Positions 8,441-47,328 of a stretch of DNA of 64,000 nt are shown piece by piece (within the stretch, counting starts at the first letter, position 1; every line of letters starts with the position of its first letter). The translations under genes were made by a program, and so were the position numbers. Origin of the DNA: Spirochaetia bacterium (lineage in GTDB: Bacteria > Spirochaetota > Spirochaetia > WTKD01 > G963693115); NCBI GenBank assembly GCA_965196605.1, contig CBDAKK010000008.1, positions 539,257-603,256 of the forward strand, given 5' to 3'. A model generated the notes under the pieces. The model did no database searches. It was not told where the DNA came from and was given only the letters and a program-made list of their open reading frames with translations.

Positions 8441-8454
8441 GCTTTGGTGCATGC

Positions 8455-9330
8455 TTGCCTTTGTGGGGGGTGTATACCCCCACGCCCCCCGTGGGTAAGA
8501 TGCGCATTTGCGCTACGCGCGCGAGGCTGCACGCCGTGTGTGTTCTGCTTGCGCCGTTTTTTATGAACGCTTCTGCGGCTAAGACGCTAGCGTGCTACCA
8601 GCGGTATTGTATGAACGTCTCTTGTTGCCACGACGTAGGATGCACTATGAAAACATTTCGGACGGCTGTACTTTCTTTTTTCTTTTTTCAAAATAACGCG
8701 AGCAGAGCGAGCGGGCGCCACTGCTAGATAGTGGAGCGTTAGCGAAACATGAAATAGAGCAAGCGACAACAAGAAAGGTACCAAAGAAAAAAAGAAAAAG
8801 GAGCCTGCGGCTACAGCCGCAGGAACAGTGTTACGCTGCACGCAACATATGAAAACTATACACAAATAAGTTTGTGTGAATGGCCTTCCCCCCGGCGCTC
8901 AATGCGTCCCATCCATGGGGCGGCTGTGATGACGCTCACAAGCGTAGCGAGGGGATGCAAACTATTGCATAAGCGCCGCTGTGCGGTGCAAAGATGGAAC
9001 TTGCATCAAAAGAGTCGAGAGCCGAAGGCGACAGCCGTAGCAGGGATGCTACGTATTGGCTGCCATGGATGGTACGGGTGCAAACTACTGCATAAGTGCC
9101 GCGATGCGGCACAAACATGGAACTTGCACCAAAGTCGGGAGCGCTGACAAGCGCGATCGGCTAGAAACAATTAAAATAAGTGTCGCGCAGCGACACAGAC
9201 ATGGAGCTTATAGCAAACTCGCTAGTCTTATGAGATATGACACGGACAACGCGCTTACGCGCGATTATTTTATTTATATCCGTAAGTACCTTGAGGTGCT
9301 ACACACAAGTGGCGCAGATTTGCTTCAGAT
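8455..9330. repeat. composite intergenic repeat cluster 1. Contains the G-rich palindrome module, the 'cacgccgtgtgtgt...cgcgcgtagcgc' module and about three reverse-orientation copies of the ~98-bp 'gcaaactattgcataagcgccgc' unit
   Basis: These modules recur at 17270-17840, 40064-41230, 43300-44110 and 46460-47300 (see findings). The ORFs within are artefacts of the repeats. Confidence 0.8.
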
Positions 9331-22513: not shown

Positions 22514-22551
22514 ATGTAATTACCTGCCTGCAATAAAGGTGCATAAAAAAA

Positions 22552-22589: not shown

Positions 22590-22616
22590 ATATATCAAGG
22601 TTAAACGAGCAATGTG

Positions 22617-23373: not shown

Positions 23374-23405
23374 CTCCCACGCGTAGGGTACGCGGGGAGT
23401 TTTAT
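23374..23405. terminator. rho-independent terminator, a duplicate of the 22552 module
   Basis: ctcccacgcgtagggtacgcggggag hairpin with flanking A/T runs, followed by the same 'tatatatcaaggt.aaa..agcaatgtgctacttcttttt' context. Confidence 0.7.
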
Positions 23406-23431
23406 ATATCAAGGTGAAAAAAAGCAATGTG

Positions 23432-27420: not shown

Positions 27421-28449
27421 TTATTCTTTATTGCTTCTCTTATTTATCTCACTCATTCTGCCCAGCACATCGAGTCCTTGTTTATAAAGATAGTGGAGCA
27501 AGTCTATAAATACCCAGTTCTCAGCTATTTTGTCTTTGTGTCTGCGGTAGACGTCCACAACGCGCATAGGTGCATGTACCTCACTCGCGGGCAGTCCTAA
27601 AAACCCGCCTACGTTTTTGTTGTTTAAGTTAGGCCAACCAAAAAAGGCGCAATACGCACCTTCGGCAATGCGCGCGACGTGTCCATTAAAAACTTTATCG
27701 CGCAAGTTTTGTCTAAACGGCAGTTGATGATGCTCTTGATATCGCTCTATGGTATATGATGAACCAATTCCAACGGGCCCATGCCATATCATGTCTTCAT
27801 GCCACGTTTGTTCCAAAACCGACTTGGGGCATGTGTTGCTCTTAGACTTGTTCAAGGCATCCAAGTCACCAATCATGCGGTTAATAAGCGCTAAGGTAAG
27901 TGCGCCTTCGCGTTCATCTTGCACGCTTATAAGCAAGCCGTCATGCGTGCGCGGCGCGCTTTTGTAGGCGCAAGGCGTACCAGTCATGGGAGGCAAGGGG
28001 TACACACCTGCTTGGTACATAAGGCTCAAAATGTCAATAAAAAGCGCCGTCTCTACAATGACCCCGTTCTCTACAGCGTGAAACTCCGCATAGGGTAAAA
28101 AAGCCATCTTCCCGTTTGAGGGTATGCCGAGCCAATTGTGGTCAAAGAGTCCTAAAAAATTCCCAATGCTCGCCACCCATGTGGTTTTACCACCATCGCA
28201 GTCATTTGCTCCTGCAAGGAATATGTCCTCACGCCTTTGCAAGGACAAGAGCGCGCGCCGAAGCGGCAGCCAAAATGCATGCGCAACTTCCGCCGCTCCA
28301 TGTTTTTCGTCAAAGGGATGCATGCCCCGCCAGTAATATGAAGTGCTTGTATAGCGTTCTAAAATCCTCAGCAGGTCTTCATCGCGCGCATCCTCTAAGG
28401 CTTGGTGGTACTCTCGCACCACACGCTTGTCTTGAGCAAAATTATTCAT
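27421..28449 (-). CDS. protein with two tandem SnoaL/ester-cyclase-like (NTF2-fold) domains
   Basis: Two repeats with NWLGIPSNGKMAFLPYAEFHAVENGVIVETALFIDILSLMYQAG and GFLGLPASEVHAPMRVVDVYRRHKDKIAENWVFIDLLHYLYKQG, paralogous to the 715-aa protein. Confidence 0.45.
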   Translation of the reverse strand: MNNFAQDKRVVREYHQALEDARDEDLLRILERYTSTSYYWRGMHPFDEKHGAAEVAHAFWLPLRRALLSLQRREDIFLAGANDCDGGKTTWVASIGNFLGLFDHNWLGIPSNGKMAFLPYAEFHAVENGVIVETALFIDILSLMYQAGVYPLPPMTGTPCAYKSAPRTHDGLLISVQDEREGALTLALINRMIGDLDALNKSKSNTCPKSVLEQTWHEDMIWHGPVGIGSSYTIERYQEHHQLPFRQNLRDKVFNGHVARIAEGAYCAFFGWPNLNNKNVGGFLGLPASEVHAPMRVVDVYRRHKDKIAENWVFIDLLHYLYKQGLDVLGRMSEINKRSNKE

Positions 28450-32058: not shown

Positions 32059-32766
32059 ATGAAACGCTTATTATTTATACTTATTTTACTTGTTGTGACT
32101 TGGGCACTCTGCGCGCAGTCATCAAACACAAGTGAGCAAACCAACAAAGGAAACTGGCTTTTGAGCCGTGTTTCTTCAGATAAACAAGCAATGAATGCGA
32201 GTATAGAAACTGCCATTCGTTCGGGGCTCATGCCGCAGGCAATGGAGCGCAATGAAGACGGTGTGTTTTTAATGCTTTCTCAAACAACTCCACCTGCGCG
32301 TTTTAGCAAGAGTTGGCAGCTTTTGCGTTACGCTTCTGAACGGAAGCTGATGGAAGAAATGCGCGCGCTTGCACAAGAGGACTGGACGCCAATAGCCATG
32401 GACGTACAAGATGATGGCGCATTTGTGCAATACGTAAAAAACGGATTACGCATTACCAATGCGCGCATGATAAGAATTTCACAGAGCAGTGAAATTCAAG
32501 ACACCGTGCAAGTCTATCGCGACTTAGGATTTTTCCCCGCTGCCCTAAGCACGTATAAGGACGAACTGTGGTTTTTGTTTGCACAGTATGAAAACATGGC
32601 AGTCGAGGACTTTGAAATTTCTATCAAAAGTGGCGATGCTGTAAGCATAGAAGACATTATTGAACAGGGGCTGGCAAGTGAAAAAACACAGTTTATTGAT
32701 ATGGCAATAACCGTGGATAATCAAGTCATCATAGCCTTTATAGAGCCAATTACGCAAAGTCAATAA
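32059..32766 (+). CDS. hypothetical secreted protein
   Basis: 235 aa with signal peptide LLVVTWALCAQS. Confidence 0.5.
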   Translation: MKRLLFILILLVVTWALCAQSSNTSEQTNKGNWLLSRVSSDKQAMNASIETAIRSGLMPQAMERNEDGVFLMLSQTTPPARFSKSWQLLRYASERKLMEEMRALAQEDWTPIAMDVQDDGAFVQYVKNGLRITNARMIRISQSSEIQDTVQVYRDLGFFPAALSTYKDELWFLFAQYENMAVEDFEISIKSGDAVSIEDIIEQGLASEKTQFIDMAITVDNQVIIAFIEPITQSQ

Positions 32767-32839
32767 TGCATAAGCGCGCAAGGCGTGTGGAAAAATTTAA
32801 GGTTTTAGGAAGTTTTGTTGCTCTCAAAAAGCGCTAGAA

Positions 32840-33268
32840 CTACCCCTTGAAGTCCATGTTATGCTTGTTGAAAAATTGCGGGAGGAGTTCTTCCATGCTC
32901 CACGTTTTGTACGCATTTCCCTTAAGGTTTGTGCATATGATGATGGTGTGCTCACTAGCAAACTCTGCCGTAACTTGCCGACACGCGCCGCACATGCTCA
33001 CAGGTTCTTGAGTGTCCGCTATAACTAGCAAGGTGTGTAACTGCCGCATGCCATGCGCCGCAGCGGTAAACAAAGCCACGCGCTCTGCACAGCAAGAGAG
33101 TCCGTACGAGGCATTTTCTATGTTAGCCCCCGAATACAGTGCGCCGCTCTCAGTACACAAGGCTGCGCCAACCTTAAAGTGAGAATACGGCACATAGGCC
33201 TTTTCGCGTACTTCGCGCGCTTGCTCCAGTAGCTTCTCGCGCAACTTCTCGTTGTCTTCTTGCAGCAT
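32840..33268 (-). CDS. cdd: cytidine deaminase
   Basis: Zinc-binding motifs CAERVALFTAAAHG and SMCGACRQV. The ORF-track start (33298) overlaps deoC; an internal Met (about 33268) is more likely. Confidence 0.85.
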   Translation of the reverse strand: MLQEDNEKLREKLLEQAREVREKAYVPYSHFKVGAALCTESGALYSGANIENASYGLSCCAERVALFTAAAHGMRQLHTLLVIADTQEPVSMCGACRQVTAEFASEHTIIICTNLKGNAYKTWSMEELLPQFFNKHNMDFKG

Positions 33269-33269
33269 A

Positions 33270-33998
33270 TCAATACTTCCCCTTATTCTCATCTGCATTT
33301 TCAGCAGCGCGCATTTGCACTATGTCCACACCCGCGCTTGTACCAATTCTATCAGCGCCCGCTTCAATCATGGCACGGGCAGTCGCATAATTCCGTATGC
33401 CCCCCGCAGCCTTTACGCGCGCCTTTTTTCCAACTACACGCTTCATAAGACGTACATGCTCTACCGTAGCCCCAGCGTCCCCAAAGCCCGTGGAGGTTTT
33501 TACAAACTCAGCGCCCGCGCTTATGCACATTTCGCACAGCCGCACTATGTCCTCCTCTAAGAGGTAGCAGGTCTCAATAATAACCTTAAGCAGCGCATGC
33601 GTGTTTTTCACGGCATTGCTTGCTTTGCCAATTGCCTCACGCACCGCGCGTATTTCCTGCAAGACGTAGTCGTAGTCTTGGGAAAAATACGCGCCCAATG
33701 AAACCACCATGTCTATTTCCGTAACACCCTGTGTTACTAAATGCTGCGCCTCACGCGCCTTGCATGCGCTACTCTCATTGCCAAGCGGAAAGCCCACAAC
33801 TGAACAAACACGCGTTGCGCAGCCCTCAAGCTCATGCACACACAAGCTAGCCCACTGGCCGCTTACACACACACAAGCAAACTCATGCGTCCTCGCCTCT
33901 TTGCACAAGGCCACTATATCGCTGCGCTGCGCTGTGGCTTTGAGTACCGTTGCATCTATATATGACGCTATGTCTTTCTCCATCATCAACTCCTCCAA
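33270..33998 (-). CDS. deoC: deoxyribose-phosphate aldolase
   Basis: IDATVLKATA N-terminal motif and Schiff-base lysine region VKTSTGF. Confidence 0.85.
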   Translation of the reverse strand: MEELMMEKDIASYIDATVLKATAQRSDIVALCKEARTHEFACVCVSGQWASLCVHELEGCATRVCSVVGFPLGNESSACKAREAQHLVTQGVTEIDMVVSLGAYFSQDYDYVLQEIRAVREAIGKASNAVKNTHALLKVIIETCYLLEEDIVRLCEMCISAGAEFVKTSTGFGDAGATVEHVRLMKRVVGKKARVKAAGGIRNYATARAMIEAGADRIGTSAGVDIVQMRAAENADENKGKY

Positions 33999-34000
33999 AT

Positions 34001-35317
34001 TTATAACACTTCGTAAATAAGCGGCACAGAGGGTGCAGCATCTGAAGTAGTATACGCCGACTGTATAAGCGCACTCACTTCATCCCGCGTGTGCTCACTC
34101 ATCCCGCGTGCATAATATATACGTGCAAGCGCCTCTCCTTTTTCCAGTTTCTCCCCGGGCTTTTTATGCAGCACTATTCCAACCGCGTGATCTATATCGT
34201 CGCTCTTTGTCTTTCTTCCCGCGCCCAGCATCATGGCAGCCGTACCAATGCGCTGCGCATCAATGGCTTGCACCACCTGCGCGCCCCCGCTGTCCTCGTC
34301 ATAAACAACCTCCATATGCTGCGGCTTACCCATATATGACTTCTCTTCAAGCTCTCGCGGGTCTGCTCCACAGCACACAATAAAGCGCTCTAACATCGTC
34401 AAGGCCTTACCCGTTTTTATAACACCCTCTACCAGCACCTTGCCCGCTTCATATTTTTTTACATCTCCCCGTGCAAGCAACGCCATGCCTGCAAGCGCGC
34501 AGGTGAGTTCGTACACATCACTCGGAGTTTCTTCCCCGCGCAGCATGCTAACGGCCTCATGTACCTCTAGCGCATTCCCCACCGCGCTACCAAGCGGCTG
34601 TCCCATGTCCGAAAGTACGCAGCGCACGTCGCGCCCCGCGCCCTCTCCAATTTTTTTCATGGTCCTTGCCAAAGCGCTTGCGGACGCTACATCCTTCATA
34701 AACGCGCCTGAACCAACCTTCACATCAAGCACTATTGCATTAGACGAGACAGCAAGCTTCTTACTCATAATAGACGAGGCGATGAGCGGAATGCTCTGCA
34801 CGGTACCCGTAACATCGCGCAAGCTGTAGAGTTTTTTATCCAGCGGCACTATGCGCTCTGAATAACTCATGAGCGCCATGTTAGACTCCTTGAGCGTCCT
34901 TTCTATTGCACTGTCCTCCGAAGAAAAGTGGAAGTTCTGCAATGACTCAAGCTTGTCCACCGTGCCGCCCGTGTGCCCAAGCCCGCGCCCGCTAATCTTG
35001 AGCACGGCAAAATCAAGTGCCGCGAGTATGGGAAGGAGCGTAAGGCTTATTTTATCACCCACGCCCCCAGTCGAATGTTTATCTATAACGTACTTGTCAC
35101 TTGGCACGCTTATGGTCTGCCCTGAAGCACGCATGGCCTCGGTTAATGCAGAAAGCTCAGCATCATTCATGCCGTTAAAATACACCGCCATAAGCAGCGC
35201 GCTCATTTGATAGTCGGGAATATCACCCCTTTGATAGGCTTCGCACATCTCGCCTATGGCCTCAGGCCTAAGCGCCTGAGCATTGCGTTTTTCCACAATG
35301 CAATCAACCATTCTCAT
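34001..35317 (-). CDS. pdp: pyrimidine-nucleoside (thymidine) phosphorylase
   Basis: Conserved DKHSTGGVGDKISL phosphate-binding motif. 438 aa. Confidence 0.85.
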   Translation of the reverse strand: MRMVDCIVEKRNAQALRPEAIGEMCEAYQRGDIPDYQMSALLMAVYFNGMNDAELSALTEAMRASGQTISVPSDKYVIDKHSTGGVGDKISLTLLPILAALDFAVLKISGRGLGHTGGTVDKLESLQNFHFSSEDSAIERTLKESNMALMSYSERIVPLDKKLYSLRDVTGTVQSIPLIASSIMSKKLAVSSNAIVLDVKVGSGAFMKDVASASALARTMKKIGEGAGRDVRCVLSDMGQPLGSAVGNALEVHEAVSMLRGEETPSDVYELTCALAGMALLARGDVKKYEAGKVLVEGVIKTGKALTMLERFIVCCGADPRELEEKSYMGKPQHMEVVYDEDSGGAQVVQAIDAQRIGTAAMMLGAGRKTKSDDIDHAVGIVLHKKPGEKLEKGEALARIYYARGMSEHTRDEVSALIQSAYTTSDAAPSVPLIYEVL

Positions 35318-35320
35318 ACG

Positions 35321-36265
35321 TTACCGAGCTCCTTTTTCATATGGTATGCCGAGTGCTTTAGGAACCACTGTTTTACGACTAAAACCAACAAGCGCAAGCA
35401 CTGTCAAAACGTAGGGCAATGCCTTAAAGGCTTCGAGCGGGAGGAAGGCCAAAAACGCAATGTCGTTTGAATAAATGACAAGTATTTGCGAAAACCCAAA
35501 AAACAAGGAAGCAGCCATAACCCCCAGCGGCTTCCACTGCCCAAAAATGAGCGCGGCAAGGGCAATGAACCCCGTGCCATGTACGCTACTCACCGAATAT
35601 TGTGTGTCTTGTGTCAGCACCATGATGCCGCCTGCAAGTCCCGCACAAAGCCCCGAAATAATCACCCCCGCATAACGCATGTAGCTAACGTGTATACCCG
35701 CGCTGTCTACCGCTTGCGGGTGTTCACCTGTAGCGCGCAGGCGTAAGCCAAAGGTGGTTTTGCTAATAACAAACCACGCCACTACAATACACACAATCCC
35801 CAGATATACGGGAGCGTATATATTGGTGAAAAACATGTCCCCTACAATGGGAATGTCTTGCAAGAGTGGAACAGACACCTTTGAAAAGCCGCGTTGAAAG
35901 GCCTGCGTGCGCTGCTGTCCAAAGAATATCTCACAAAAGTATATGGTAGAACCAAGCGCAAAAAAGTTTAGCGCTGTTGCCGATATAATCTGATCTCCTT
36001 TCATGCTCACGCTTATGAATGCATGAATAGTAGCCACCGCCGCGCCTATAAGCGCTCCTACAAATATTGCGAGCCATGGTGCAAAAGCTGTAAGCGGCTC
36101 CAAGACCACGGTGATACTAGCTGCAACAAAGGCGCCAATCATCATAAGCCCCTCAAGCGCTATGTTGGTAACACCACTGCGTTCAGAAAAAAGCCCACCC
36201 AATCCTGCTATGACTATGGGCAAGGAATACGTGAGCGTTTGACTCATCACTGCTGAAAGATTCAC
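35321..36265 (-). CDS. nucleoside ABC transporter permease (BMP-family system, RnsD/NupQ-like)
   Basis: Polytopic membrane protein in an operon with the BMP lipoprotein and the tandem-NBD ATPase. Confidence 0.75.
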   Translation of the reverse strand: MNLSAVMSQTLTYSLPIVIAGLGGLFSERSGVTNIALEGLMMIGAFVAASITVVLEPLTAFAPWLAIFVGALIGAAVATIHAFISVSMKGDQIISATALNFFALGSTIYFCEIFFGQQRTQAFQRGFSKVSVPLLQDIPIVGDMFFTNIYAPVYLGIVCIVVAWFVISKTTFGLRLRATGEHPQAVDSAGIHVSYMRYAGVIISGLCAGLAGGIMVLTQDTQYSVSSVHGTGFIALAALIFGQWKPLGVMAASLFFGFSQILVIYSNDIAFLAFLPLEAFKALPYVLTVLALVGFSRKTVVPKALGIPYEKGAR

Positions 36266-37371
36266 TTTGAGCCTCCTGTACCCCTATGCATGCGCTTTAT
36301 GCGATGGTAGGCAAGCGCATCTTGTAAGCCACGCTTCATTGCTATAAAAAAGATGATGGAGGCAATTACTATGATGGTAATGTCCTTGGAAACTCGCTGC
36401 ACTTGCATGATGGGCTGTGCCGCCTGCAAGGAACCAAAGAGCAGTCCCGAGTACAAAACGCCCAGCGCGTTGTTGTTACCGAGCAGCGCAACCGCTATGC
36501 CATTAAACCCAAAGTTTTCAAAGGCAATAAGTATGCGTCCGTAGTTGTAGGTACCTATGGTTATAAAAACACCCGCCAAGCCCGCAAAGCCACCAGATAT
36601 TGCCATGGAAAGCACAATGTTGCGCTTGACATGCATGCCCGCGTGCCGCGCAGCAAAAGGGTTGCCACCCGTTGCCTTGAGCGTAAAGCCCAAAGTGGTG
36701 CGCTCTGCTATAACGTAAAACACAATAAACGCGACAACACTTACCCCTATGCCCCAGTGCAAGCGTGAATTGTTGGTAAGCGCGCTCAGAAACTCACTAT
36801 GCAAAAGCGCACTTTGCGGGAACAACGCCGTCTTGGTATTAACGCTATCCGGCAGTGAACGTATGATGAAGTTAGCTCCATAAAGCGCTATGTAGTTGAG
36901 CATAATGGTCACCACCACTTCATGCGCTTGAAACACCGCCTTGAGTACTCCCGGTATCAAGCCCCACAGCATGCCCATGAGCACCCCAGAAGCTATGACC
37001 ACCACAAAATGGAGTCCCGCGATGGGAGGAAAACACAGCGCTGCGACGCTACTTGCAGCCGAGGCAGCTATAATCTGCCCTTCCGCGCCTATGTTAAACA
37101 AACCCGCCCTAAATGCAAATGCAACGGCAAGCCCCGTCATCCACAGCGGCATCACCGATACAAAAAACTCGCCTACATAGCGCGCATTAAACAACCTGCC
37201 CCCGCGCGCTAGTGCAGCAAAATCTATACCCGTGGCACCGCGTATCATCGACTGTATGAGTATAAGCGGATTGTAACCACTGATGAGCATGAGCAAAAGC
37301 CCCAAAGCCATGCCGCTAAAAATGGAAATAAAAAACAATAGGTTTGCATCGTGCTTATGATTCATTGCCAC
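36262..37371 (-). CDS. nucleoside ABC transporter permease (RnsC/NupP-like)
   Basis: 369-aa polytopic membrane protein. Overlaps its neighbours by 4 and 10 nt. Confidence 0.75.
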   Translation of the reverse strand: MAMNHKHDANLLFFISIFSGMALGLLLMLISGYNPLILIQSMIRGATGIDFAALARGGRLFNARYVGEFFVSVMPLWMTGLAVAFAFRAGLFNIGAEGQIIAASAASSVAALCFPPIAGLHFVVVIASGVLMGMLWGLIPGVLKAVFQAHEVVVTIMLNYIALYGANFIIRSLPDSVNTKTALFPQSALLHSEFLSALTNNSRLHWGIGVSVVAFIVFYVIAERTTLGFTLKATGGNPFAARHAGMHVKRNIVLSMAISGGFAGLAGVFITIGTYNYGRILIAFENFGFNGIAVALLGNNNALGVLYSGLLFGSLQAAQPIMQVQRVSKDITIIVIASIIFFIAMKRGLQDALAYHRIKRMHRGTGGSK

Positions 37372-38942
37372 TCCTGCGTAAGCTTCATGGGGACAGAACT
37401 TGTCATTGCAAGCCCCAGCTGCCTTTCATTGGTTTCGCTCGTTGCCACGCGCTCGGTAATTTGCCCCTTGCTTAAAACCGCAATGCTGTCGGTAAGCTTT
37501 AAGAGCTCATCGAGATCATAAGAAATAAGCAGCACGGCAGCACCACGATCGCGCTCTACAAGCATGCGCTTATGCACGTACTCTATGGCTCCTATATCCA
37601 AACCCCGCGTAGGTTGAATGGCCAACAGCACCTTAGGAATACGAGCTATCTCCCGCGCTATGATGGCCTTTTGTTGGTTTCCACCCGACATACTCGCGGT
37701 ATCGGTAAGCCACCCTTCCCCGCAACGTATGTCAAAGTTCTGTATCAAAGTATCCGCATGCTCATGTATGGCCTCCGGCTGTAGGGTGCCATGCCGTGAA
37801 AAGGGCACTTTGTAATAGTCGCTGAGCACAATGTTTTCACCCAGCATAAAATGTGGCACCATACCAAACTTATGCCTATCCTCAGGTATGCACGCAAGCC
37901 CATGCGATATGCGATGCCGTATATCCATGCCCGTAATGTCTACCCCATCGAGTATTACGCTACCCTGTGTAGGCGCAAGCAAGCCCACAATAACATCACT
38001 TAACTCATGCTGTCCATTCCCCTCAATACCCGCTATACCCAGTATCTCTCCCGCATACAAAGTAACGTTACAATTGCGCAGTTTTTCAACACCCCTCTCG
38101 TTGGTAAAGCTAATATTAGCAAGCTCAAGCTGCACCTTCTCGCCATGCGTAGGACGCTTCTCCAAAGAAAAACTCACCGGACGCCCCACCATCATCTGAG
38201 CAAGCGCTTCCTTACTTGTGTCTTGCACATCAACAGTACCAATGCTCAAACCCTTACGCAACACCGTGCAACTGTCAGCAACCGCGAGTATCTCCTTAAG
38301 CTTATGCGTAATAAAAATAATCGACTTACCCTCTTGCACAAGCCTTTTCATAATGGCAAGCAAGTCCTCAATCTCCTGTGGCGTTAAGACTGCCGTTGGC
38401 TCATCAAATATCAAAATGTCGCTCTTGCGGTACAGCATCTTCAAAATTTCAACACGTTGCTGCATGCTCACAGGAATGCTGTCTATGCGTGCATCCAAGT
38501 CAACCTTAAGCCCCACGGCGTTTGACATGGCGCTAATATCTGCATACGACTGCTTCTTTTCAAACATGCCGAGCACATTGTTCTTCTCAACTCCCAGTAT
38601 GATGTTCTCAAACACACTGAAATTTTCCACAAGGTGAAAATGCTGATGCACCATGCCTATACCATATCTCGTAGCATCATTGGGGTTGCGGATGCGTGAC
38701 TTCTCCCCCCGTATGTAAATTTCGCCGCTATCGGGCTCATAAAGTCCAAAAAGCAAACTCATGAGCGTGGACTTCCCCGCGCCATTTTCTCCGAGTATTG
38801 CGTGAATCTCTCCCTGCCTTACACGCAAAGTCACGCTGTCATTGGCAACCACCCCCGGAAACTGCTTAGTAATGCCTTGCATTTCCACTACATACGGCGA
38901 TGCGACAGAGGACAATGCAGTATCTTGATCTTGTATTTCCAT
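37362..38942 (-). CDS. nucleoside ABC transporter ATP-binding protein with two NBDs (RnsA/NupO-like)
   Basis: Walker A GENGAGKST, signature motifs and a second NBD (GIAGIEGNGQHEL...MSGGNQQKAIIAREI). 526 aa. Confidence 0.85.
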   Translation of the reverse strand: MEIQDQDTALSSVASPYVVEMQGITKQFPGVVANDSVTLRVRQGEIHAILGENGAGKSTLMSLLFGLYEPDSGEIYIRGEKSRIRNPNDATRYGIGMVHQHFHLVENFSVFENIILGVEKNNVLGMFEKKQSYADISAMSNAVGLKVDLDARIDSIPVSMQQRVEILKMLYRKSDILIFDEPTAVLTPQEIEDLLAIMKRLVQEGKSIIFITHKLKEILAVADSCTVLRKGLSIGTVDVQDTSKEALAQMMVGRPVSFSLEKRPTHGEKVQLELANISFTNERGVEKLRNCNVTLYAGEILGIAGIEGNGQHELSDVIVGLLAPTQGSVILDGVDITGMDIRHRISHGLACIPEDRHKFGMVPHFMLGENIVLSDYYKVPFSRHGTLQPEAIHEHADTLIQNFDIRCGEGWLTDTASMSGGNQQKAIIAREIARIPKVLLAIQPTRGLDIGAIEYVHKRMLVERDRGAAVLLISYDLDELLKLTDSIAVLSKGQITERVATSETNERQLGLAMTSSVPMKLTQEWQ

Positions 38943-39002
38943 AAGTCAAAAAACAAAAAAAGCCGTAGACATATGCTGCGACTTTTATTGGTGCTCCTCC
39001 TA

Positions 39003-40058
39003 CTACTGAAGACGTGAAGGCTTCTTAGGCACGCTTATTTCACCAGCAAGCACCTTCGCCTTGTAGGCTTCAACGCTTTCCAAAAACTCTGCTTCTACGT
39101 TAGGGTTTTCTTCGGGAATAGCAACGCCATTATTTGCTAAGGAAAAAATCAAGATCTCCCCTCCGGGAAACTTTCCTTCATGCGAGAGCTGCGCAACATC
39201 ATGAGAAACTACATCCACGCGTTTTACCATGGAAGTGAGCATAACCGACTTTCCGTCAGCGTATACCCCATCTTGATACTGGTCGCGGTCTACCCCTATG
39301 ACCCAAACAGCCTCCCCTGCCAGTACACGATCTTTTGCTTCTTTAATAGCGCCATTACCCGTTGCTCCCGCTGCTGAAAACACCACACTCGCGCCCGCAT
39401 CATACATTTTTGCCGCAAGCGCCTGTCCAATTTGCGGCGCTGCAAAGTCCCCTGCATACTCGACAATAAGTTCAAGATCTGGAGCAACCGCTTTCACACC
39501 TGCCTCAAAGCCCGCTTCAAATCGGTGTATGAGTTCAAACTCCATACCACCTATGAACCCTACTTTTGTTCTACCTTCTGCCTTCGACTGCAAGCCCGCT
39601 ATAATTCCCACCAGAAAAGAACCCTCCTCTTCATTGAAGATTGCGCTTACCACATTGGGGCCTGGAGCTACTGTGTCTACAAGTAGAAACTGCGTGTCGG
39701 GAAAATTCTTTGAGACTTCTGTCATAGCATCTTGAAACAAAAAGCCCGCCGCAACAATAAGCGTAGCACCCTCATCCGCAAGCGTACTCAAGTTTGGAAT
39801 ATAATCCGCATCCGTACCCGACTGCAAATACTTATATTGGCTTTCGGAAAAGCCATGTTCATTTGCAAATCGCTCAATGCCTTCCCACGTACCTTGATTA
39901 AATGAGGCATCATCAATACCCCCTATATCTGTCACCAAAGCAACTGAGAATTGAGGCTCCTCAGCCTTTTTTTCCTTTGTGCACGCAACGGCAAAAAGGA
40001 CTGCTAGCGCTGTGAACACCGCCACATATATATTATGTTTCTTCATACATTCCTCCAA
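39003..40058 (-). CDS. BMP family (TmpC/PnrA-like) purine-nucleoside-binding lipoprotein
   Basis: Lipobox LFAVAC, then FSVALVTDIGGIDDASFNQGTWEGI, closely resembling Treponema TmpC/PnrA. Confidence 0.85.
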   Translation of the reverse strand: MEECMKKHNIYVAVFTALAVLFAVACTKEKKAEEPQFSVALVTDIGGIDDASFNQGTWEGIERFANEHGFSESQYKYLQSGTDADYIPNLSTLADEGATLIVAAGFLFQDAMTEVSKNFPDTQFLLVDTVAPGPNVVSAIFNEEEGSFLVGIIAGLQSKAEGRTKVGFIGGMEFELIHRFEAGFEAGVKAVAPDLELIVEYAGDFAAPQIGQALAAKMYDAGASVVFSAAGATGNGAIKEAKDRVLAGEAVWVIGVDRDQYQDGVYADGKSVMLTSMVKRVDVVSHDVAQLSHEGKFPGGEILIFSLANNGVAIPEENPNVEAEFLESVEAYKAKVLAGEISVPKKPSRLQ

Positions 40059-40063
40059 ATGTT

Positions 40064-41230
40064 TTAACTATTACCATGGTGATGCTTTTGGCTCGTTATG
40101 TAAAGAATGAACATGCCTAAGCCGAGAGTGGGGGAGCTGCCCCCACGCCCCCCTTGGGGTAAGACACGGTATTGCGCATGAGCGCTTTGTGGGTGAGCGC
40201 CCCCCCACCCCCCTTTGGGCAAGACGCCTCTTTGCGCTATGCGCGAGTGTTTGTGCCATGGCTCACGCGATGTGTTGCTCACGCTATTTGTTGCCAAGCA
40301 GCTATTCTAAATACGCTATTCATTCGGATGGCCGTTCTTTCTTTTCTTTTTTACCATCCATGGCAGCCAATGCGCCCCGTCCATGGGGCGGCTGTGATGA
40401 CGCAAAAAGAGTCGAGAGCCGAAGGCGAACGGGTGCAAACTATTGCATAAGTGCCGCAATGCGGCACAAACATGGAACTTGCACCAAAGAAAGAACCAAA
40501 GAAAAGAAAAAAACATCCTGTGTGCTAAAGCAGTAATGGCATAGATACTGTGCGTAAGTATTAAAAAGTACCCAAGAAAGTCACGAACGTAGTGAGGGGA
40601 TGCAAACTATTAAATGGCGGAGCGAAGCGGTCGCTCGCCCCATGGATGGGGCAAATAAGAGCGCCATGGACGGTGCAGAAATGGAGTACTCGCACCAAAG
40701 AAAGAAAGTAAGCTATCCGAAGATTTAGCATATCGCGCTAGCGCCTTAGTCGCAAAAGGCGTTCACGCAATGCTGCGCAAGCAGAACACATACGGCGTTA
40801 GCCCCCGCGCGTGTAGCTCAGTACAGCGTCTTACCGCAGTGGGGGTGTGGGGGCGTGCTGTCCCCACAAAGGCACGTATGGCACGCAGCGTGTTTCTTGT
40901 GTGGTTCGCTCGGTGTCCCTTAAGTGGTATGTGTATGCCTTGCAAGGACGAAAGACGAAAGCCATAGGCGAAATAAGCAACGCGCTAAGGAAACGCTAGG
41001 AAAACGGAAAACGCTTTGCGCAAAGCGTCATTGCGTAAAAAGGGGGCGGTGGGTGGAAAGCCACGCGGCTCGGGGGCTTGGGGCTCAAGTTGTCATGAGC
41101 CTACGCCTCATGTGTATATTCCGCGGCGCGGCTTAAAGCCTCAAGCAGTTGTCCGCTGTCGCTTGTGCTGCGTACTACACGGTAGCATGAGCCCGCCGCG
41201 CCTACATACGCGCCTTAGCTGCTACTTACA
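40064..41230. repeat. composite intergenic repeat cluster 3 (reverse orientation; includes a second sub-copy at 40740-40900)
   Basis: G-rich palindromes at 40130-40215 and 40838-40872, ~98-bp units at 40370-40500 and 40560-40700, and the 'gtgccatggctcacgcgatgtgttgctcacgctatttgttgcca' module. The ORFs within are spurious. Confidence 0.8.
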
Positions 41231-41615
41231 ACGCGCGGCAGTACTCGGCGTAGGCGTCTTCGTCCATAAGGGCTTGCAGTTCTTCTTCTAGTTTGAGCAA
41301 GTCTGAGACTTGCAGCTTAAGCACCCAACCCTCACCAAAGGGGTCTTTGTTTACACACTCGGGGTTGCGCTGCAAGGCCTTGTTTGCCTGTACCGCGGTG
41401 CCTGATATGGGGGTGTAAATGTCCAATGCCGCCTTTGAAGACTCAATTACTGCAACCACGTCCCCCGCCGCATAGTGTTTCTCGTCCTCTGGCACATCCA
41501 CATATACCACATCACCCACTACGGACTGCCCATAGTCTGAAATGCCCATAACGAGAACTGCCCCATCGCTCGTCTCTCTTTCAACCCATTCGTGCGTGCT
41601 TGTAAAATACCTCAT
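41226..41615 (-). CDS. gcvH: glycine cleavage system H protein (lipoyl carrier)
   Basis: Lipoyl-lysine motif ESSKAALDIYTPISG. 129 aa. Confidence 0.85.
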   Translation of the reverse strand: MRYFTSTHEWVERETSDGAVLVMGISDYGQSVVGDVVYVDVPEDEKHYAAGDVVAVIESSKAALDIYTPISGTAVQANKALQRNPECVNKDPFGEGWVLKLQVSDLLKLEEELQALMDEDAYAEYCRAL

Positions 41616-41689
41616 TCCTACCCATGTATTGTAGCACCTCTTTCCATTTTTGCGTTACGTCTGCGCGCGTGGACTACACTGAAGAGTAT

Positions 41690-43294
41690 ATGCCTTGCAC
41701 TCCTTCAAAAAACATGCCCCCCCTGTTGCGCGTGCACAACTTGTGTGTAAGCGCACCCCACCATTCACAGCGCATTGTACGTGACGTGTCGTTTTGCATG
41801 CACCGTGGAGAGCACATTGCGGTCATAGGTGACTCGGGCTCGGGGAAAACAACGCTGCTCAAGGCCATTGCGGGGGTTCTCCCTCATGCGTGGCATGCAT
41901 CGGGTTGTGTGCAGGTGCCGCACCATGAGCTTGCGTACATTATGCAAGAGCCCAAGGCAGCGCTTAACCCCATACGCAGCATTAAGGCCATGTTTGCAGC
42001 GCTGCGTCATAGCAGGCGCTTTGCCGGCATGAGCGCAAAGCAAACAAGCGAGCGCATTAGGCAGCGCATGCATGCAGCATTTAATGCAATGAAACTCATT
42101 GACAATGCTGAGGCAGACCTTGCAAAGAACGGGTCGGGCTTTTCGGACTTACACAACTTGCTTGCAAAGCGCCGTACGCAGGTCTCAGGAGGCATGGCGC
42201 AGCGCATTATGGTGGCCTTGGCCATTACTGCGGGTTCTACGGTGGCACTTGCTGATGAAGTGAGTTCCGCGCTCGATGAGAAGCACGAACGCAAAACCAT
42301 TGAGACCTTGCTTGCCGCTATGCAAGGCGTGCTGTTTGTAACGCATAGAATGAACCTTGTTAAGGACTACTGCCATAAAGTGCTGGTGCTTCAGAATGGT
42401 GCAGTGCATTTTTTTGGTGACGTGGCGCAGTGGTTGCGGGAGCACGGTGATGATGAACACAACGCGGCAGGTGTTATGACGGGGCATGCTAGCACGCAAG
42501 GGCGTAAAAAGAGCCATGCGCGCGCTCAAAACGGCAGCACTGCTAGGCATGGCGGGCTTGGTGGCGTTGTGTTGCGCTGTGAGCGCGTAGGCGTGTACTA
42601 TGACAAGCCGTCGTTTTTGCCACGCGCAACAAGCGGTGTGCGCAACTTTGTGCTGCAAGGCCTCAACTTTAGCGCGCGCGCGCGAGAGGTTGTCTTGGTG
42701 CGTGGCGAAACCGGCTGTGGCAAAAGCACCTTTGCGCATGTGTGCGCAGGGCAGCTTCAGCCTTGCACGGGGGCGGTGTGCATGCATAATACCCCCATGC
42801 CCTATGGTTCGGCGCGTGCCATGCGCATTTTTAGGCGGGACGTGCAGCTTATTTCGCAAGTGCCCTCCTTGAGTTTTAACCCGCTGCGCACGGTGCTCAG
42901 CAGCCTCATGGACGCGCACGCCACAATGTCGCGGGCAGAAAAACAGCGCAGTCAGGAGTACCTGCAGCAGCTGTGTAAGACCATGCACATTTCTCAGGCG
43001 CAGCTTGCGCGCTTCCCCCATGAGCTTTCTGGTGGGCAGCTCCAACGCATCGCCATTATACGCGCCTTGCTGCCGCACCCAAACATCCTCATCCTCGACG
43101 AACCGGTGAGTCACTTGGACCCACGCATACGCATACAAGTGTTGGAGCGCATAGCTGCATTGCACGCACAAACGCGCATAACGCTTATTGTTATTTCGCA
43201 CCTTGAGGAGGTATGCGCCTTTATAAAACGTAGCTATGCGCAATACACCGCCTATGCCCTAGAACATGGCGCGCTTGTGCCGCTTGAAACCTAA
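41690..43294 (+). CDS. ABC transporter ATP-binding protein with duplicated NBDs (DppD-DppF fusion, YejF/GsiA-like). No cognate permease is adjacent
   Basis: GDSGSGKTT/VSGGMAQRIMVALAI and GETGCGKST/LSGGQLQRIAIIRAL. The ORF-track start is 41624; the likely start is MPCTPSK or MPPLL. The gene is notably GC-rich (about 60%). Confidence 0.7.
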   Translation: MPCTPSKNMPPLLRVHNLCVSAPHHSQRIVRDVSFCMHRGEHIAVIGDSGSGKTTLLKAIAGVLPHAWHASGCVQVPHHELAYIMQEPKAALNPIRSIKAMFAALRHSRRFAGMSAKQTSERIRQRMHAAFNAMKLIDNAEADLAKNGSGFSDLHNLLAKRRTQVSGGMAQRIMVALAITAGSTVALADEVSSALDEKHERKTIETLLAAMQGVLFVTHRMNLVKDYCHKVLVLQNGAVHFFGDVAQWLREHGDDEHNAAGVMTGHASTQGRKKSHARAQNGSTARHGGLGGVVLRCERVGVYYDKPSFLPRATSGVRNFVLQGLNFSARAREVVLVRGETGCGKSTFAHVCAGQLQPCTGAVCMHNTPMPYGSARAMRIFRRDVQLISQVPSLSFNPLRTVLSSLMDAHATMSRAEKQRSQEYLQQLCKTMHISQAQLARFPHELSGGQLQRIAIIRALLPHPNILILDEPVSHLDPRIRIQVLERIAALHAQTRITLIVISHLEEVCAFIKRSYAQYTAYALEHGALVPLET

Positions 43295-43299
43295 GGCTT

Positions 43300-44058
43300 C
43301 ACATGTGAAAGGTTGCCTTGTGTGGCACGCCCCTGCAAAGGCAAGGCACAGGGTGCGGCGCTCCACCGTAGCGTAGTGCTAGGGAGTCTGACAGCACTAT
43401 GTCAGAGAGTCTGACAGCACTATGTCAGGGAGTCTGACGGCACTATGTCAGACACCACCGTAGCATAGTGCGGTACTCCACCGCAGCATAGTGCGCTGCC
43501 GCCTTGCCACATGTGCTAAGACACAGCCCCCCGCAGCACTGAGACGTGTAAGCTGCACGCCGTGTGTGTGATGGCTCACGCTATTTGTACCATTCATGGC
43601 ACACAATGTGTCCCATGAATGGTGAGCAGCGCACTCACACAAACTTACTTCCATACAATCTTCATACTTGCGCACAGTATCTATGTTATTATTGCTTTAG
43701 CACACAGGATGTTTTCTTTTCTTTCTTTGGTTCTTTTCTTTCTTTTCTTTTCCGTCCTGAAAAGAAAAGAAAGAAAGAACGGCCAACCGAAGTGTTTGCT
43801 TAGTGCGCTCACGTCATGGCAACAAGAGGCGTTCACGCAATACTGCGCAAGCAAAACACACACGGCGTGCAGCCTACCCGCGCGTAGCGCAATATAGCGT
43901 CTTACCCCAAGGGGGGTGTGGGGGCGCTCCCCCACAAAGCGCTTATGCACATATAGCGTCTTACCCCAAGGGGGGGGGTGGGGGCGCTCCCCCACAAAGG
44001 CAAGACACAACGCTATGTGGTATGAAGGGTAGTTGCTTTATATATCATGCTTACATTT
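43300..44058. repeat. composite intergenic repeat cluster 4, bounded by 38-bp perfect direct repeats (43241..43278 and 44061..44098)
   Basis: Contains the 23-bp array, the 'gtgatggctcacgctatttgt' module, the 20-bp-arm hairpin 'ttctttctttcttttcttttccgtcctgaaaagaaaagaaagaaagaa' and two G-rich palindromes (43915-43990). Confidence 0.8.
43381..43449. repeat. three tandem 23-bp units, each containing the palindrome CTGACAgcactaTGTCAG
   Basis: Units at 43381-43403, 43404-43426 and 43427-43449, flanked by 'ccaccgtagcatagtgc' motifs (43362, 43454, 43476) that are complementary to the unit core. Confidence 0.85.
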
Positions 44059-44129
44059 GTGCAGTACACCGCCTATGCCCTAGAACATGGCGCGCTTGTG
44101 CGTCTTGAGAATAAAAGTTTACTTTGTGC

Positions 44130-45173
44130 TTATTGTAAGCGCGTTGGTACTTTTGGTATGGTAAGTTTGCCCGATAATACCTGTTGTTTGTAGCGCGATA
44201 CGAGCTCTAAAAATTCCGCGCTTACGTTGGGGTTTTCTTGTGGTATACCCACACCTCCGTTTTCTAGCGAGAATGTAAGTACTTTTCCACCAGGAAAATT
44301 GCCTTGCTTTGCTAAGTTTGCAACATTGTGTGTGGCAACATCTACGCGTTTTACCATGGAGCTGAGAATTACAGATTTGTCTTTAGCGTAAATGCCTTCT
44401 TCATATTGGTCTCTATCAACCCCAATAATCCATACACGTTCTCCGTTTAGTGCACGATCCTTCGCTTCTTTAATAGCACCGTTTCCAGTAGTTGCAGCTG
44501 CGTGAAAAATCACGCCAACGCCAGCGTCGTACATTTTTGCAGCAAAGGCTTGTCCAAGGGACGGGGCAGAAAAGTCAGCGGCGTATTCCACAAGTATTTC
44601 TAAATCTGGTGCAACTGTTTTCACGCCTTTTTCAAACCCGGCTTCAAAACGATGTATCACATCAAATTCCATTCCACCGATAAAGCCTACTTTTTCTTTC
44701 CTTTCTGCTTGTGATTGAAGCCCCGCTATAACTCCAACGAGGAATGAGCCTTCTTCTTCTTTAAACACAGCGCTTACAACATTGGGCTTTGGGACGGCGG
44801 TGTCAATGATGAGAAACTGTTTGGTGGGGAAATTTTGAGCAACTTTTGTAATGGCTTCGGTAAATGTAAAGCCCGCCGCCACAATAAGTGTTGTATCGTT
44901 GTCGGCAAGTGCGCTCAAATTTGGAAGATAATCGGAATGAGTACTTGATTGCACATAGGTATACTGCGCCTTTGAGAGATTTTCTTGAGATGCAAATTTT
45001 GTAATACCTTCCCATGCGCTTTGATTAAACGCCTTGTCATCAATGCCACCTATGTCGGTTACGAGCCCCACAGAAAATGACGTAGATTGTTTTTTAGTAC
45101 AGGCGTTTAAACCGCCTCCCATGATCAATGCTATTGATAGTATGTAGAAAGTCGTCTTCATAAGTTCCCCCAT
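44130..45173 (-). CDS. BMP family lipoprotein, orphan paralog of 39003..40058
   Basis: Lipobox GLNAC, then FSVGLVTDIGGIDDKAFNQSAWEGI. About 60% identical to the first BMP protein, with no adjacent transporter genes. Confidence 0.85.
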   Translation of the reverse strand: MGELMKTTFYILSIALIMGGGLNACTKKQSTSFSVGLVTDIGGIDDKAFNQSAWEGITKFASQENLSKAQYTYVQSSTHSDYLPNLSALADNDTTLIVAAGFTFTEAITKVAQNFPTKQFLIIDTAVPKPNVVSAVFKEEEGSFLVGVIAGLQSQAERKEKVGFIGGMEFDVIHRFEAGFEKGVKTVAPDLEILVEYAADFSAPSLGQAFAAKMYDAGVGVIFHAAATTGNGAIKEAKDRALNGERVWIIGVDRDQYEEGIYAKDKSVILSSMVKRVDVATHNVANLAKQGNFPGGKVLTFSLENGGVGIPQENPNVSAEFLELVSRYKQQVLSGKLTIPKVPTRLQ

Positions 45174-45242: not shown

Positions 45243-46457
45243 TTGTTTATGTTTAGGATAATGACTTTTATGAAACTTCTGCTCCGCTTTTATTGCTTGG
45301 TATTCTTAGGGTTTTTTGTGGCTGTGGTTTGTGAGCCGCTCATGGCTCAAGAGATAGATGCACGGCTTGAGACCAAGCAGCAGGATGATGGCTCTGTTGT
45401 CTTTTCTGTTACAAACAATGAGGCTGTGCCTGTGTTTGTAGCGGTGCATTTTACTCAGTTGGATGGGCTTGTTGCAGATAGGGATGCTCCGATTGTTATT
45501 CCGCTTGAGGTGGGAGAGAATGAGGGGGTGCTTGCCTTGCGTCGCAAAGAGAACGCGAGGAGGCAGACCTACCGTGTTTCGTATCATTTTTTGTTTGTAA
45601 ACCCTGCTGAGGTACAGCCTGATGGTTTTTTGTATTATTTGCCTTTTGAGCATGGAGTGAAGCATGTAATAACGCAGGGGTGGCATGGGAGTTTTAGCCA
45701 TAGTGGGCAGAACACGTATGCTGTGGACTTTGACATGCTTGAGGGCGAAAAGGTCTATGCTGCTCGGGAGGGGGTAGTGGTTGCGGTGAAGCGGGACTCT
45801 CGTATAGGTGGGACTTCCCAAGCTTATGCAAAACACGCAAACTATGTGCTTATTCGGCATGCTGATAACACCATAGCGAGTTATGTACACTTGATGTTTA
45901 ATGGTGCGCTTGTAGACGTGGGGCAGCGCGTGGTGCTTGGGCAGCATATAGGCTATGCGGGCAAGACGGGCTTTGCAAGCGGGGCGCATTTGCACTTTGA
46001 TGTGCGCGCGTCTACCTTTGACCGCGGCATGCAGAGTGTTCGTTTTAGCTTTAGAGACAAGGACGGCGCGGCTGTAGAACCACAGGCTTACGCTACGTAT
46101 TATGGGCGCTTTCCCGGCGGTGCGGATTTTACTGAACTCCGTGGAAGCGACATTAGCGCGGCTACCTTTGAGGATCATAGTGTGGAGCTAGCTAGCACCA
46201 CTGCCTTTGATGGGCTGCACATACGTAAGGAGACCTACGACTCGGTGGTGGTGCTTTTTATAGCCAATGCATTTTCGTACGCGGTAGACGCGCGTGTTAC
46301 GCTTACGCTGGGTAATTTGCGCATGGAGCAATCCATGCCCATAGGCGTAGTAATACCCGCTCGTAGGGAAGTCTTTCTCGGTATTGCGCGTATACAAAAT
46401 GCGCGCAAGGGTATTGCCGTGCGTAGTAGCATTCGTTACAACCGCGCACAGGAGTAA
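45243..46457 (+). CDS. M23 family metallopeptidase (second copy) with an N-terminal membrane anchor
   Basis: YAVDFDM...VYAAREGVVVAV...HANYVLIRHADNTIASYVHL...GKTGFASGAHLHFDV. Confidence 0.8.
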   Translation: MFMFRIMTFMKLLLRFYCLVFLGFFVAVVCEPLMAQEIDARLETKQQDDGSVVFSVTNNEAVPVFVAVHFTQLDGLVADRDAPIVIPLEVGENEGVLALRRKENARRQTYRVSYHFLFVNPAEVQPDGFLYYLPFEHGVKHVITQGWHGSFSHSGQNTYAVDFDMLEGEKVYAAREGVVVAVKRDSRIGGTSQAYAKHANYVLIRHADNTIASYVHLMFNGALVDVGQRVVLGQHIGYAGKTGFASGAHLHFDVRASTFDRGMQSVRFSFRDKDGAAVEPQAYATYYGRFPGGADFTELRGSDISAATFEDHSVELASTTAFDGLHIRKETYDSVVVLFIANAFSYAVDARVTLTLGNLRMEQSMPIGVVIPARREVFLGIARIQNARKGIAVRSSIRYNRAQE

Positions 46458-46459
46458 GT

Positions 46460-47300
46460 GCCTTGTGGGGGCACGCCCCCACACCCCCGCGCGTCTTGAG
46501 TGCTAAGCACGGGTTACTTCGTGTTTGTTGCTTACGCTATTTGTGCCATCCATGGCACAGTTGTCGCCTTCGGCTCTCCACTCTTTTGATGCAAGCTCCA
46601 TGTTTGCACCGCACAGCGGCGCTTATGCAATAGTTTGCATCCCCTCGCTACGCTCGCGACTTTTTGGTTCTTTTTCTTTTCTTTTGATGCAAGTTCCATG
46701 TTTGTGCCGCATTGCGGCACTTATGCAACAGTTTGCATCCCCTCGCTACGCTCGCGACTTTTTGGTTCTTTTTCTTTTCTTTTGATGCAAGTTCCATGTT
46801 TGTGCCGCATTGCGGCACTTATGCAACAGTTTGCATCCCCTCGCTACGCTCGTGACTTTGGTACTTTCTTCTTTGGCGCGAGTATTCATACAAACTTACT
46901 TACATACAATCTTCATACTTGCGTAGAGTAGCTATGTTATTACTGCTTTAGCACACAGGAGGCTTTTTTCTCTTTTCTTTGGTACTTTCTTTTCTCTTTT
47001 TTGCATCCATAAAAAAGAGAAAAGAAAGTACAGCCGTCCGAGGCATCATCATATCGCGTCACGCGCCGTGGCAACACAGAGCGTGAGCAACATACCGCGT
47101 GAGCCATCACACACACGGCGTGTAGCTTACTCGCGCGTAAGCGCAGAACGACCAGCAGTAGGGGTGTGGGGGCGTGCTGCCCCCACAAAGGCACGCGTGG
47201 AGCGCAAACAAGGGGGGTGGGTGGGGTGTTATTGCTATAAAATGGGTATTGTCGTATTCTTTTAGGTAGTGATACTTGGGTATTGCGGGTGCTATGTTCC
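46460..47300. repeat. composite intergenic repeat cluster 5, including three tandem ~98-bp units at 46583..46876
   Basis: G-rich palindromes at 46465-46495 and 47160-47225. Units 2 and 3 (46681-46778, 46779-46876) are near-identical. Hairpin 'ctttcttttctcttttttgcatccataaaaaagagaaaagaaag' at about 46985-47030. Confidence 0.85.
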
Positions 47301-47328
47301 CTTGTTTGTGGATATAGTCCTAGTATGA

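Follow-up and report, generated by a model that had tools for sequence, protein, structure and literature searches.

Genes and intergenic elements of the nucleoside locus

We analysed a 64-kb stretch of a Spirochaetia bacterium contig (CBDAKK010000008.1; hereafter the window), with a focus on a nucleoside uptake and catabolism operon, on a second gene for its BMP (PnrA-like) lipoprotein that stands apart from the operon, and on a set of hairpin-rich repeat elements (E1 to E5) in the spacers around them. Gene families were assigned by Pfam and NCBIfam profile scans of the open reading frames (ORFs) of the window, where "above cutoff" refers to the database gathering scores. Three lineages were read, with comparison loci taken from two contigs (L029, L032 and L033; 1.80 and 1.85 Mb, GC content 0.37) and from a 2.8-kb contig of another relative (L030; GC content 0.41). 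The genes of the locus were as follows:

32840..33298, minus strand: cdd, cytidine deaminase (tetrameric type); PF00383; TIGR01354 at 143 bits, above cutoff
33270..33998, minus strand: deoC, deoxyribose-phosphate aldolase; TIGR00126 at 237 bits, above cutoff
34001..35317, minus strand: pdp, pyrimidine-nucleoside phosphorylase; TIGR02644 at 481 bits, above cutoff; three Pfam domains
35321..36265, minus strand: second ABC permease (BPD_transp_2); PF02653, E 1.6e-47; L029 ortholog 86% identical
36262..37371, minus strand: first ABC permease (BPD_transp_2); PF02653, E 2.6e-34
37362..38942, minus strand: operon ATPase of CUT2 type with tandem nucleotide-binding domains (NBDs); two ABC_tran domains; top NCBIfam matches are sugar/CUT2 ATPases
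39003..40058, minus strand: BMP1, PnrA-like lipoprotein; PF02608 at 260.3 bits (cutoff 24.1)
41226..41615, minus strand: gcvH; PF01597 and NF002270 above cutoff; upstream of the operon on the same strand; same position in L029, L032 and L033
41624..43294, plus strand: orphan Dpp/Nik/YejF-like tandem-NBD ATPase, assigned by Pfam and NCBIfam; ancestral neighbour by synteny; fast-evolving
44130..45173 (annotated start 45161), minus strand: BMP2, orphan PnrA-like lipoprotein paralog; PF02608 at 260.2 bits (cutoff 24.1)
45243..46457, plus strand: M23 peptidase; PF01551; divergent from BMP2; ancestral neighbour by synteny

The profile scans confirmed the seven-gene minus-strand operon and the gene identities given in a first-pass annotation of this DNA. 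All seven gene types were contiguous on one strand with junctions of -10 to +60 nt, and the identical gene order was found in L029, L032 and L033. The overlapping stops and starts described in that annotation held for two junctions, namely a 4-nt overlap between the permeases and a 10-nt overlap between the ATPase and the first permease if the GTG start is correct; the remaining junctions were gaps of 1-3 nt, plus 60 nt after BMP1. Comparison of N-termini with a relative placed the more likely start of cdd at ATG 33268 (against L029) and that of BMP1 at 40046, behind a GGAGGA ribosome-binding site. A scan for sigma-70 and terminator consensus sequences was uninformative, with promoter-like sites rarer than in shuffled sequence. 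The seven genes are predicted to be co-transcribed.

In the proposed pathway, BMP1 would capture nucleosides and the CUT2 ABC transporter would bring them in, after which Cdd would deaminate (deoxy)cytidine, Pdp would remove the base and DeoC would cleave deoxyribose-5-P. The gene for the mutase step between Pdp and DeoC would be located elsewhere or missing. Neither phosphopentomutase (deoB) nor a purine nucleoside phosphorylase was found in the operon or the window by the Pfam scans, so the route from import to catabolism, which had been called complete, is not complete in the window. The operon is best described as a PnrA-type nucleoside importer to which a branch for the salvage and breakdown of pyrimidine (deoxy)nucleosides is fused; it is of an ordinary kind and very probably vertically inherited.

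Five repeat elements were delimited in the window:

8446..9142, minus strand: E1, in reverse orientation, with one GH end only
17290..17840, plus strand: E2, with degenerate GH ends
40128..40887, no strand assigned: E3 ("cluster 3"), GH'-GH'-Y'-U'-X'-U'-W-Y-GH, with inverted G-hairpin ends
43309..43999, plus strand: E4 ("cluster 4"), degenerate GH', a 23-nt array of three copies, V, X, Y, GH, GH
46455..47206, plus strand: E5, GH'-Z-U-U-U-X-Y-GH, the clearest full copy, beginning directly after the M23 stop codon

The repeats were far beyond chance, one 23-mer occurring six times against 0 expected, and self-BLAST of the window matched element copies at 70-98% identity (mostly 73-95%) over 36-335 nt. 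The elements shared the module order GH'-Z-U(n)-X-Y-GH and were about 550-760 nt long. The GH module (about 46 nt) contained an 8-9-bp G/C hairpin of the form GTCTTACCCCAAGGGGGGTGTGGGGG-loop-CCCCCACAAAGG; the U module measured 98 nt and had three copies in E5 and about two each in E2 and E1; and the X module carried a 21-bp CT/AG hairpin (z = -7.2). E3 and E5 had clearly recognisable inverted GH modules at their ends, of about 50 nt and about 31 nt. The element ORFs matched no Pfam family, and Rfam returned no family at the gathering threshold, with E ≤ 1 giving only sub-threshold miRNA-like matches to the long CT/AG hairpin. Pfam scans detected no transposase within the window. A scan of JGI metagenomes for a 23-mer of the 98-nt unit gave 0 matches, and a G-hairpin pattern scan of viral contigs returned 29 single, generic matches that were judged to be chance and discarded.

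The window has five spacers of more than 800 nt (8441-9980, 17389-18358, 40059-41225, 43295-44129 and 46458-47328), each with one element copy, and together the elements amounted to about 3.4 kb, or about 5% of the window. E5 began at the next base after a stop codon, E1 11 nt and E4 18 nt after one. The first-pass annotation had set the repeat clusters exactly at the outer boundaries of the two BMP genes. The clusters beside these genes are real, but they lie on the mutually facing sides, 69 nt upstream of BMP1 in one case and 21-130 nt downstream of BMP2 in the other, and the position is not special, as three further spacers are filled in the same way. About 10 of 50 genes abut an element, and the post-hoc chance that both BMP genes would do so is about 0.04 by our own arithmetic, which is not compelling.

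Gene order in relatives and the age of the second BMP gene

Eighteen genes were collinear and in the same orientation in L029, L032 and L033 and in the window (32059-55615), with amino-acid identities of 56-97%. The shared order ran hypothetical, cdd, deoC, pdp, permease, permease, ATPase, Bmp, gcvH, orphan ATPase and M23, followed by TPR, mreB, mreC, mreD, pbp2, rodA and glnS. Spacer lengths were near-identical between relative and window at 15 of the 18 shared spacers. The Bmp/gcvH spacer measured 129 nt in L029 and 1167 nt in the window, the ATPase/M23 spacer 20 nt and 1948 nt, and the M23/TPR spacer 131 nt and 871 nt, respectively. The sites were thus empty in the relatives: the three homologous spacers (20-131 nt in L029, 53 nt in L030) contained no element sequence, and the only piece that they had in common with the window was a 39-nt native stretch before the TPR gene. 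This stretch, which precedes TPR-mreBCD-pbp2-rodA (window 47226-47264; L029 12917-12955), was 87% conserved and is presumably a native promoter or leader untouched by the insertion of E5.

No BMP2 gene was present at the ATPase/M23 site in L029, L032 or L033. L030 read, in order, the 3' half of the ATPase gene, a convergent BMP2-like gene and a divergent M23 gene; its BMP protein was 78% identical to BMP2 and 68% to BMP1, and its stop-to-stop ATPase/BMP2 spacer of 53 nt was free of repeats. M23 and the ATPase are about 73% identical between L030 and L029 and 59-66% identical between either of these and the window, so BMP2 at this site is ancestral to all three lineages and was lost in the L029 lineage. 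BMP2 would then have stood between the Dpp-like ATPase and M23 genes since before the lineages split, with loss in one sublineage. Likewise, gcvH and the orphan ATPase, which had been described as wedged between the clusters, occupied the same place and orientation in L029, L032 and L033, so they are ancestral neighbours and no wedge. Neither gcvT nor gcvP accompanied gcvH in the window or in the 21-kb loci of the relatives. The gcvH gene immediately precedes the nucleoside operon on the same strand, at a distance of just 129 nt in the relatives.

The exact ATPase, BMP2 and GlnS proteins were recorded on one 1,144,098-bp contig only, and the nearest named matches of GlnS were 55-59% identical and came from several phyla, which places the source no closer than in a deep, spirochaete-like lineage with few sampled members. 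The neighbourhood has very probably been inherited vertically in this lineage, and the elements would have entered it later without moving or duplicating genes.

The two BMP genes are paralogs. Their protein identity was 67% in local and 64% in global alignment, above the value of about 60% given earlier, and their DNA identity was 69%, limited to the coding region (39079-39935 against 44206-45062 in self-BLAST). BMP1 adjoins the CUT2 ATPase and two permeases, whereas BMP2 has no transporter genes beside it, in agreement with the first-pass annotation; its neighbours are the convergent Dpp-like ATPase gene and the M23 peptidase gene, divergent across a 69-nt spacer. The predicted lipoboxes read ...LFAVAC|TKE in BMP1 and ...GGGLNAC|TKK in BMP2. 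In a neighbour-joining tree, BMP2, the L030 protein and a third metagenomic protein formed one clade (bootstrap 0.98), with the operon clade (BMP1 and the Bmp proteins of L029 and of a TARA contig) as its sister (bootstrap 0.83). Between BMP2 and its L030 ortholog, Ka/Ks was 0.12, indicating purifying selection, and a scan of genome contigs with BMP2 yielded no match closer than 56% identity. On this sequence evidence, BMP2 is an old paralog, older than the split of these lineages. The low GC content at third codon positions (GC3) of BMP2 (0.362) was considered as a sign of recent transfer and rejected: in each of the three lineages, L030 (0.289) and L029 (0.219) included, no neighbouring gene had a lower GC3 than the BMP gene, and 4-fold sites were saturated in all pairs. 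The low value is thus a property of the gene.

The closest solved structure for both proteins was Treponema pallidum PnrA (PDB 2FQW; E 1e-104 for BMP1 and 3e-102 for BMP2), for which 12 ligand-contacting residues have been listed (PMC4331430). Nine of the 12 were identical in BMP1 and eight in BMP2, and both proteins kept the stacking phenylalanine pair and the ribose-binding Asp/Asp/Lys. Four changes were fixed in the BMP2 clade, G232A at a contact residue and A233T, A207S and L107T adjoining the pocket or in its loop 1. The earlier reading of BMP2 as an orphan paralog that could differ in specificity holds. Because the pocket changes are fixed in the clade, and resemble the few differences among Borrelia paralogs, BMP2 is most likely a second receptor with a shifted nucleoside preference that would dock on the operon transporter; we infer the ligand specificities of BMP1 and BMP2 and their sharing of a transporter from sequence. 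G232A and L107T offer a concrete pair for the study of nucleoside preference in PnrA-type receptors.

The orphan ATPase gene had been singled out as unusually GC-rich. Its GC content of 0.556 was indeed the highest of the 50 window genes (mean 0.449, standard deviation 0.047; z about +2.2 to +2.3), as was its GC3 of 0.616 (mean 0.453), but its codon-usage distance from the rest of the window was ordinary (Kullback-Leibler distance, KL, 0.096), the very outcome that the annotation had named beforehand as refuting its reading. The gene sat on a GC plateau (gcvH 0.523, pdp 0.523, deoC 0.521, cdd 0.510 and M23 0.503); its L029 ortholog had a GC content of 0.384 among neighbours of 0.34-0.41, and all 18 shared genes were richer in GC in the window than in L029, by +0.06 to +0.18. 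L029, L032, L033 and L030 all carried the orphan ATPase at the corresponding site and with unchanged orientation. Since its codon usage is ordinary, it is syntenic in the relatives and its GC content is ordinary there, the ATPase does not appear to be foreign.

It was the least conserved of the 18 shared genes (56.5%), and its divergence relative to M23 was not disproportionate. Two or three proteins among 5.8 billion exceeded 50% identity to it, and the next matches, at about 29%, were ordinary peptide/nickel ATPases. Both NBDs keep Walker A, Walker B, the signature motif and the H-loop as read from the alignment. The protein lacks oligo_HPY C-terminal domains, and no permease or binding protein is encoded nearby; where both flanks could be read (L029, L032 and L033), the gene was divergent from gcvH and followed by the M23 gene. 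The two tandem-NBD ATPases of the locus were considered as paralogs and rejected, being 23% identical and from different ABC subfamilies. The GC rise against the 1.8-Mb relatives peaked from cdd to the orphan ATPase (window 32750-43750).

Origin of the elements and of the duplicated ATPase end

Self-comparison revealed a 66-nt duplication of the ATPase 3' end around E4:

43222..43287, plus strand: ATPase 3' coding end, copy 1 of the duplication
44043..44108, plus strand: relic copy of the ATPase 3' end, translating as QYTAYALEHGALVRLE with no in-frame stop

The copies agreed at 83% of positions over their full length and at 92% in the last 51 nt, and the second lay beyond E4, 21 nt from the BMP2 stop codon. 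Read in the ATPase frame, the second copy gives QYTAYALEHGALVRLE where the live gene gives AQYTAYALEHGALVPLET followed by a stop. The second copy is what is left of the original gene end, which nearly abutted BMP2, as it does in L030. A template-switch duplication is a possible source of the tail copy, and replacement of gcvH-ATPase by an allele already carrying E4 is also possible.

The simplest reading is that the elements form a lineage-specific, MITE- or BOX-like modular family that would have invaded the spacers after the gene order, BMP2 included, was fixed, because they share a module architecture and the homologous spacers of the relatives are empty. Only in the window lineage would this hairpin-rich non-coding element have entered spacers, three of them in this neighbourhood, with gene order unchanged; the elements are accordingly presumed to be mobile. 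We tentatively propose, while leaning slightly towards doubt, that they represent an undescribed modular non-autonomous mobile element, GH'-Z-U(n)-X-Y-GH, that has recently spread through the spacers of a reduced (about 1.14 Mb) spirochaete-like genome, often 0-18 nt from stop codons, with one arrival accompanied by a frame-preserving 66-nt duplication of a gene 3' end.

Several points weigh against the invasion of an established neighbourhood by such an element. Just three relatives' loci were comparable and none of them is close, and element copy number, the cognate transposase and deoB/deoD were judged from the 64-kb window only. Clear terminal inverted repeats were confined to E3 and E5, those of E2 and E4 being degenerate and E1 having a single end, and no short target-site duplication was evident by eye at E3 or E5. 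The 66-nt tail duplication flanking E4 is not explained by a simple insertion; its length exceeds that of a target duplication made by a transposase, and it has no counterpart at the other elements. Finally, the bootstrap of 0.83 for the operon clade leaves some probability to a BMP duplication after the split, with accelerated evolution, and synonymous sites (4-fold sites) were saturated in all lineage pairs.

Host function is an unlikely alternative origin for the elements, which under this explanation would be recruited terminators, insulators between transcription units or small-RNA genes. The many stable hairpins (z-scores to -7.2 and -4.4), the start of E5, E1 and E4 within 0-18 nt past a stop codon and the conserved native promoter piece that E5 left intact before the TPR gene are all consistent with it. 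However, the G-hairpins are without a following T-run, Rfam yields no family and only sub-threshold hairpin matches, the same junctions in relatives are served by 20-131-nt spacers, and the mosaic make-up of the elements varies in a way that is typical of mobile DNA in decay.

It is slightly less likely still that an allele of higher GC content from another strain took the place of gcvH-ATPase, or of just the ATPase, through homology-facilitated illegitimate recombination, with a donor that already carried E4 and with the recipient's old ATPase 3' tail left at 44043-44108. Such a replacement would account for the relic tail beyond E4, and gcvH and the ATPase, the latter with the highest GC content in the window, differed most from L029 both in GC content, with a rise of +0.17 to +0.18, and in sequence, with identities of 61% and 56.5%. 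Against it, the ratio of ATPase to M23 divergence was about 1.05 with L029 and 1.2 with L030, compared with 1.0 between L030 and L029; ATPase codon usage was ordinary; the high GC content formed a plateau that also covered cdd, deoC, pdp and M23 (0.50-0.52); and position and orientation were conserved.

The rearrangement proposed by the first-pass annotation, in which recombination between the clusters duplicated the BMP gene, rearranged the locus and brought in gcvH and a foreign ATPase, is very improbable: E3, E4 and E5 do have modules in common, directly oriented and about 3.07 and 3.25 kb apart, which bracket gcvH-ATPase and BMP2-M23, and each BMP gene abuts an element, but gene order across all three clusters is unchanged from that in the repeat-free relatives, L030 has BMP2 at the same site without repeats, the paralogs match only within their coding sequences, where their 69% DNA identity is in general lower than that among element copies (70-98%, mostly 73-95%), and the ends of the match do not lie at the repeats, and the BMP2 clade predates the lineage split. 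A repeat-free BMP2 at the same site in a relative, within an old clade, is also what the annotation had itself named as the contrary outcome of its synteny check.

Further repeats and gene pairs were observed elsewhere in the window. A 50-nt tandem repeat of 2.4 copies lay at 9331-9448, and a second, unrelated small repeat family had two copies, 77% identical, in different spacers (9457-9578 and 12533-12661). The stretches 22543-22655 and 23365-23470 were 80% identical and covered the 5' and upstream part of two adjacent hypothetical genes without a Pfam match (22617-23195 and 23432-23977, minus strand), which are probably tandem paralogs. Two large SnoaL-like-domain proteins (25229-27376 and 27421-28449) adjoined a sodium:solute symporter (28459-30066), an unusual arrangement for a small genome.

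Comparison with known systems

The operon resembles sp0842-sp0848 of Streptococcus pneumoniae (pdp, deoC, cdd, pnrA, ATPase and two permeases), which has been reported to be co-transcribed (PMC4331430). The seven gene types are identical and joined in one unit, and deoB lies outside the unit there too. The catabolic genes, however, are upstream in the pneumococcus and downstream here, the phylum is another, and the pneumococcal BMP protein is much less similar to BMP1 (224 bits) than is PnrA (353 bits). A marine relative (L031, a TARA scaffold) carried Bmp-ATPase-permease-permease-pdp-cdd without deoC at 3368-9929, with a DDE_3 transposase fragment just 3' of the nucleoside genes (10631-10876). 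Like the two proteins here, PnrA of T. pallidum (TmpC, Tp0319; 2FQW/2FQX/2FQY) is a lipoprotein of the PF02608 fold, and genes for a tandem-NBD ATPase and for two permeases follow its own. BMP1 and BMP2 keep the F56/F206 aromatic sandwich of PnrA and its residues D47, N57, D128, D258 and K280; unlike PnrA, BMP1 has the contacts S48I, M178I and V230A changed, BMP2 adds G232A, and pdp-deoC-cdd are appended to the transporter genes.

The BmpA-D proteins of B. burgdorferi provide a parallel for the two receptors: this too is a reduced-genome spirochaete with several BMP paralogs whose pockets differ at few positions, and the paralogs are thought to broaden nucleoside uptake. Thymidine is the preferred ligand of BmpA, and BmpD binds purine nucleosides (PMC13325309, PMC7093131). 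The Borrelia paralogs are in tandem, whereas here the second copy lies 4 kb off, past two unrelated genes and convergent with the ATPase gene, and the window holds two copies only. Extra or orphan BMP genes were common among the fetched loci: Brachyspira hampsonii (L028, 7799-11005) had three tandem BMP genes ahead of a single transporter, another locus (L002, 366-2639) had two, and several others had a BMP gene with no transporter within 10 kb. Streptococci, Treponema and Borrelia already offer documented cases of this operon type and of additional BMP receptors, and the locus adds little that is new for nucleoside biology.

The repeats are the less ordinary feature of the locus. A small genome in which modular intergenic repeats make up about 5% of the window is a useful case for the spread of elements without operon breakage. 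Pneumococcal BOX, Neisseria Correia and enterobacterial BIMEs/REPs are modular non-autonomous intergenic repeats. The present elements are longer than REP, BOX or Correia units and are related to no Rfam family, and, unlike the known modular repeats, they came with no short target duplication and no transposase identified within the window. In this likening, the case for mobility comes only from presence and absence relative to distant relatives. Like BOX, Correia and BIME/REP repeats in general, however, the elements are shorter than 1 kb, non-coding, rich in hairpins and dispersed in intergenic spacers, often just past gene ends, and they have a variable number of internal units (U in one to three copies, like boxB) and, clearly so in E3 and E5, inverted terminal modules.

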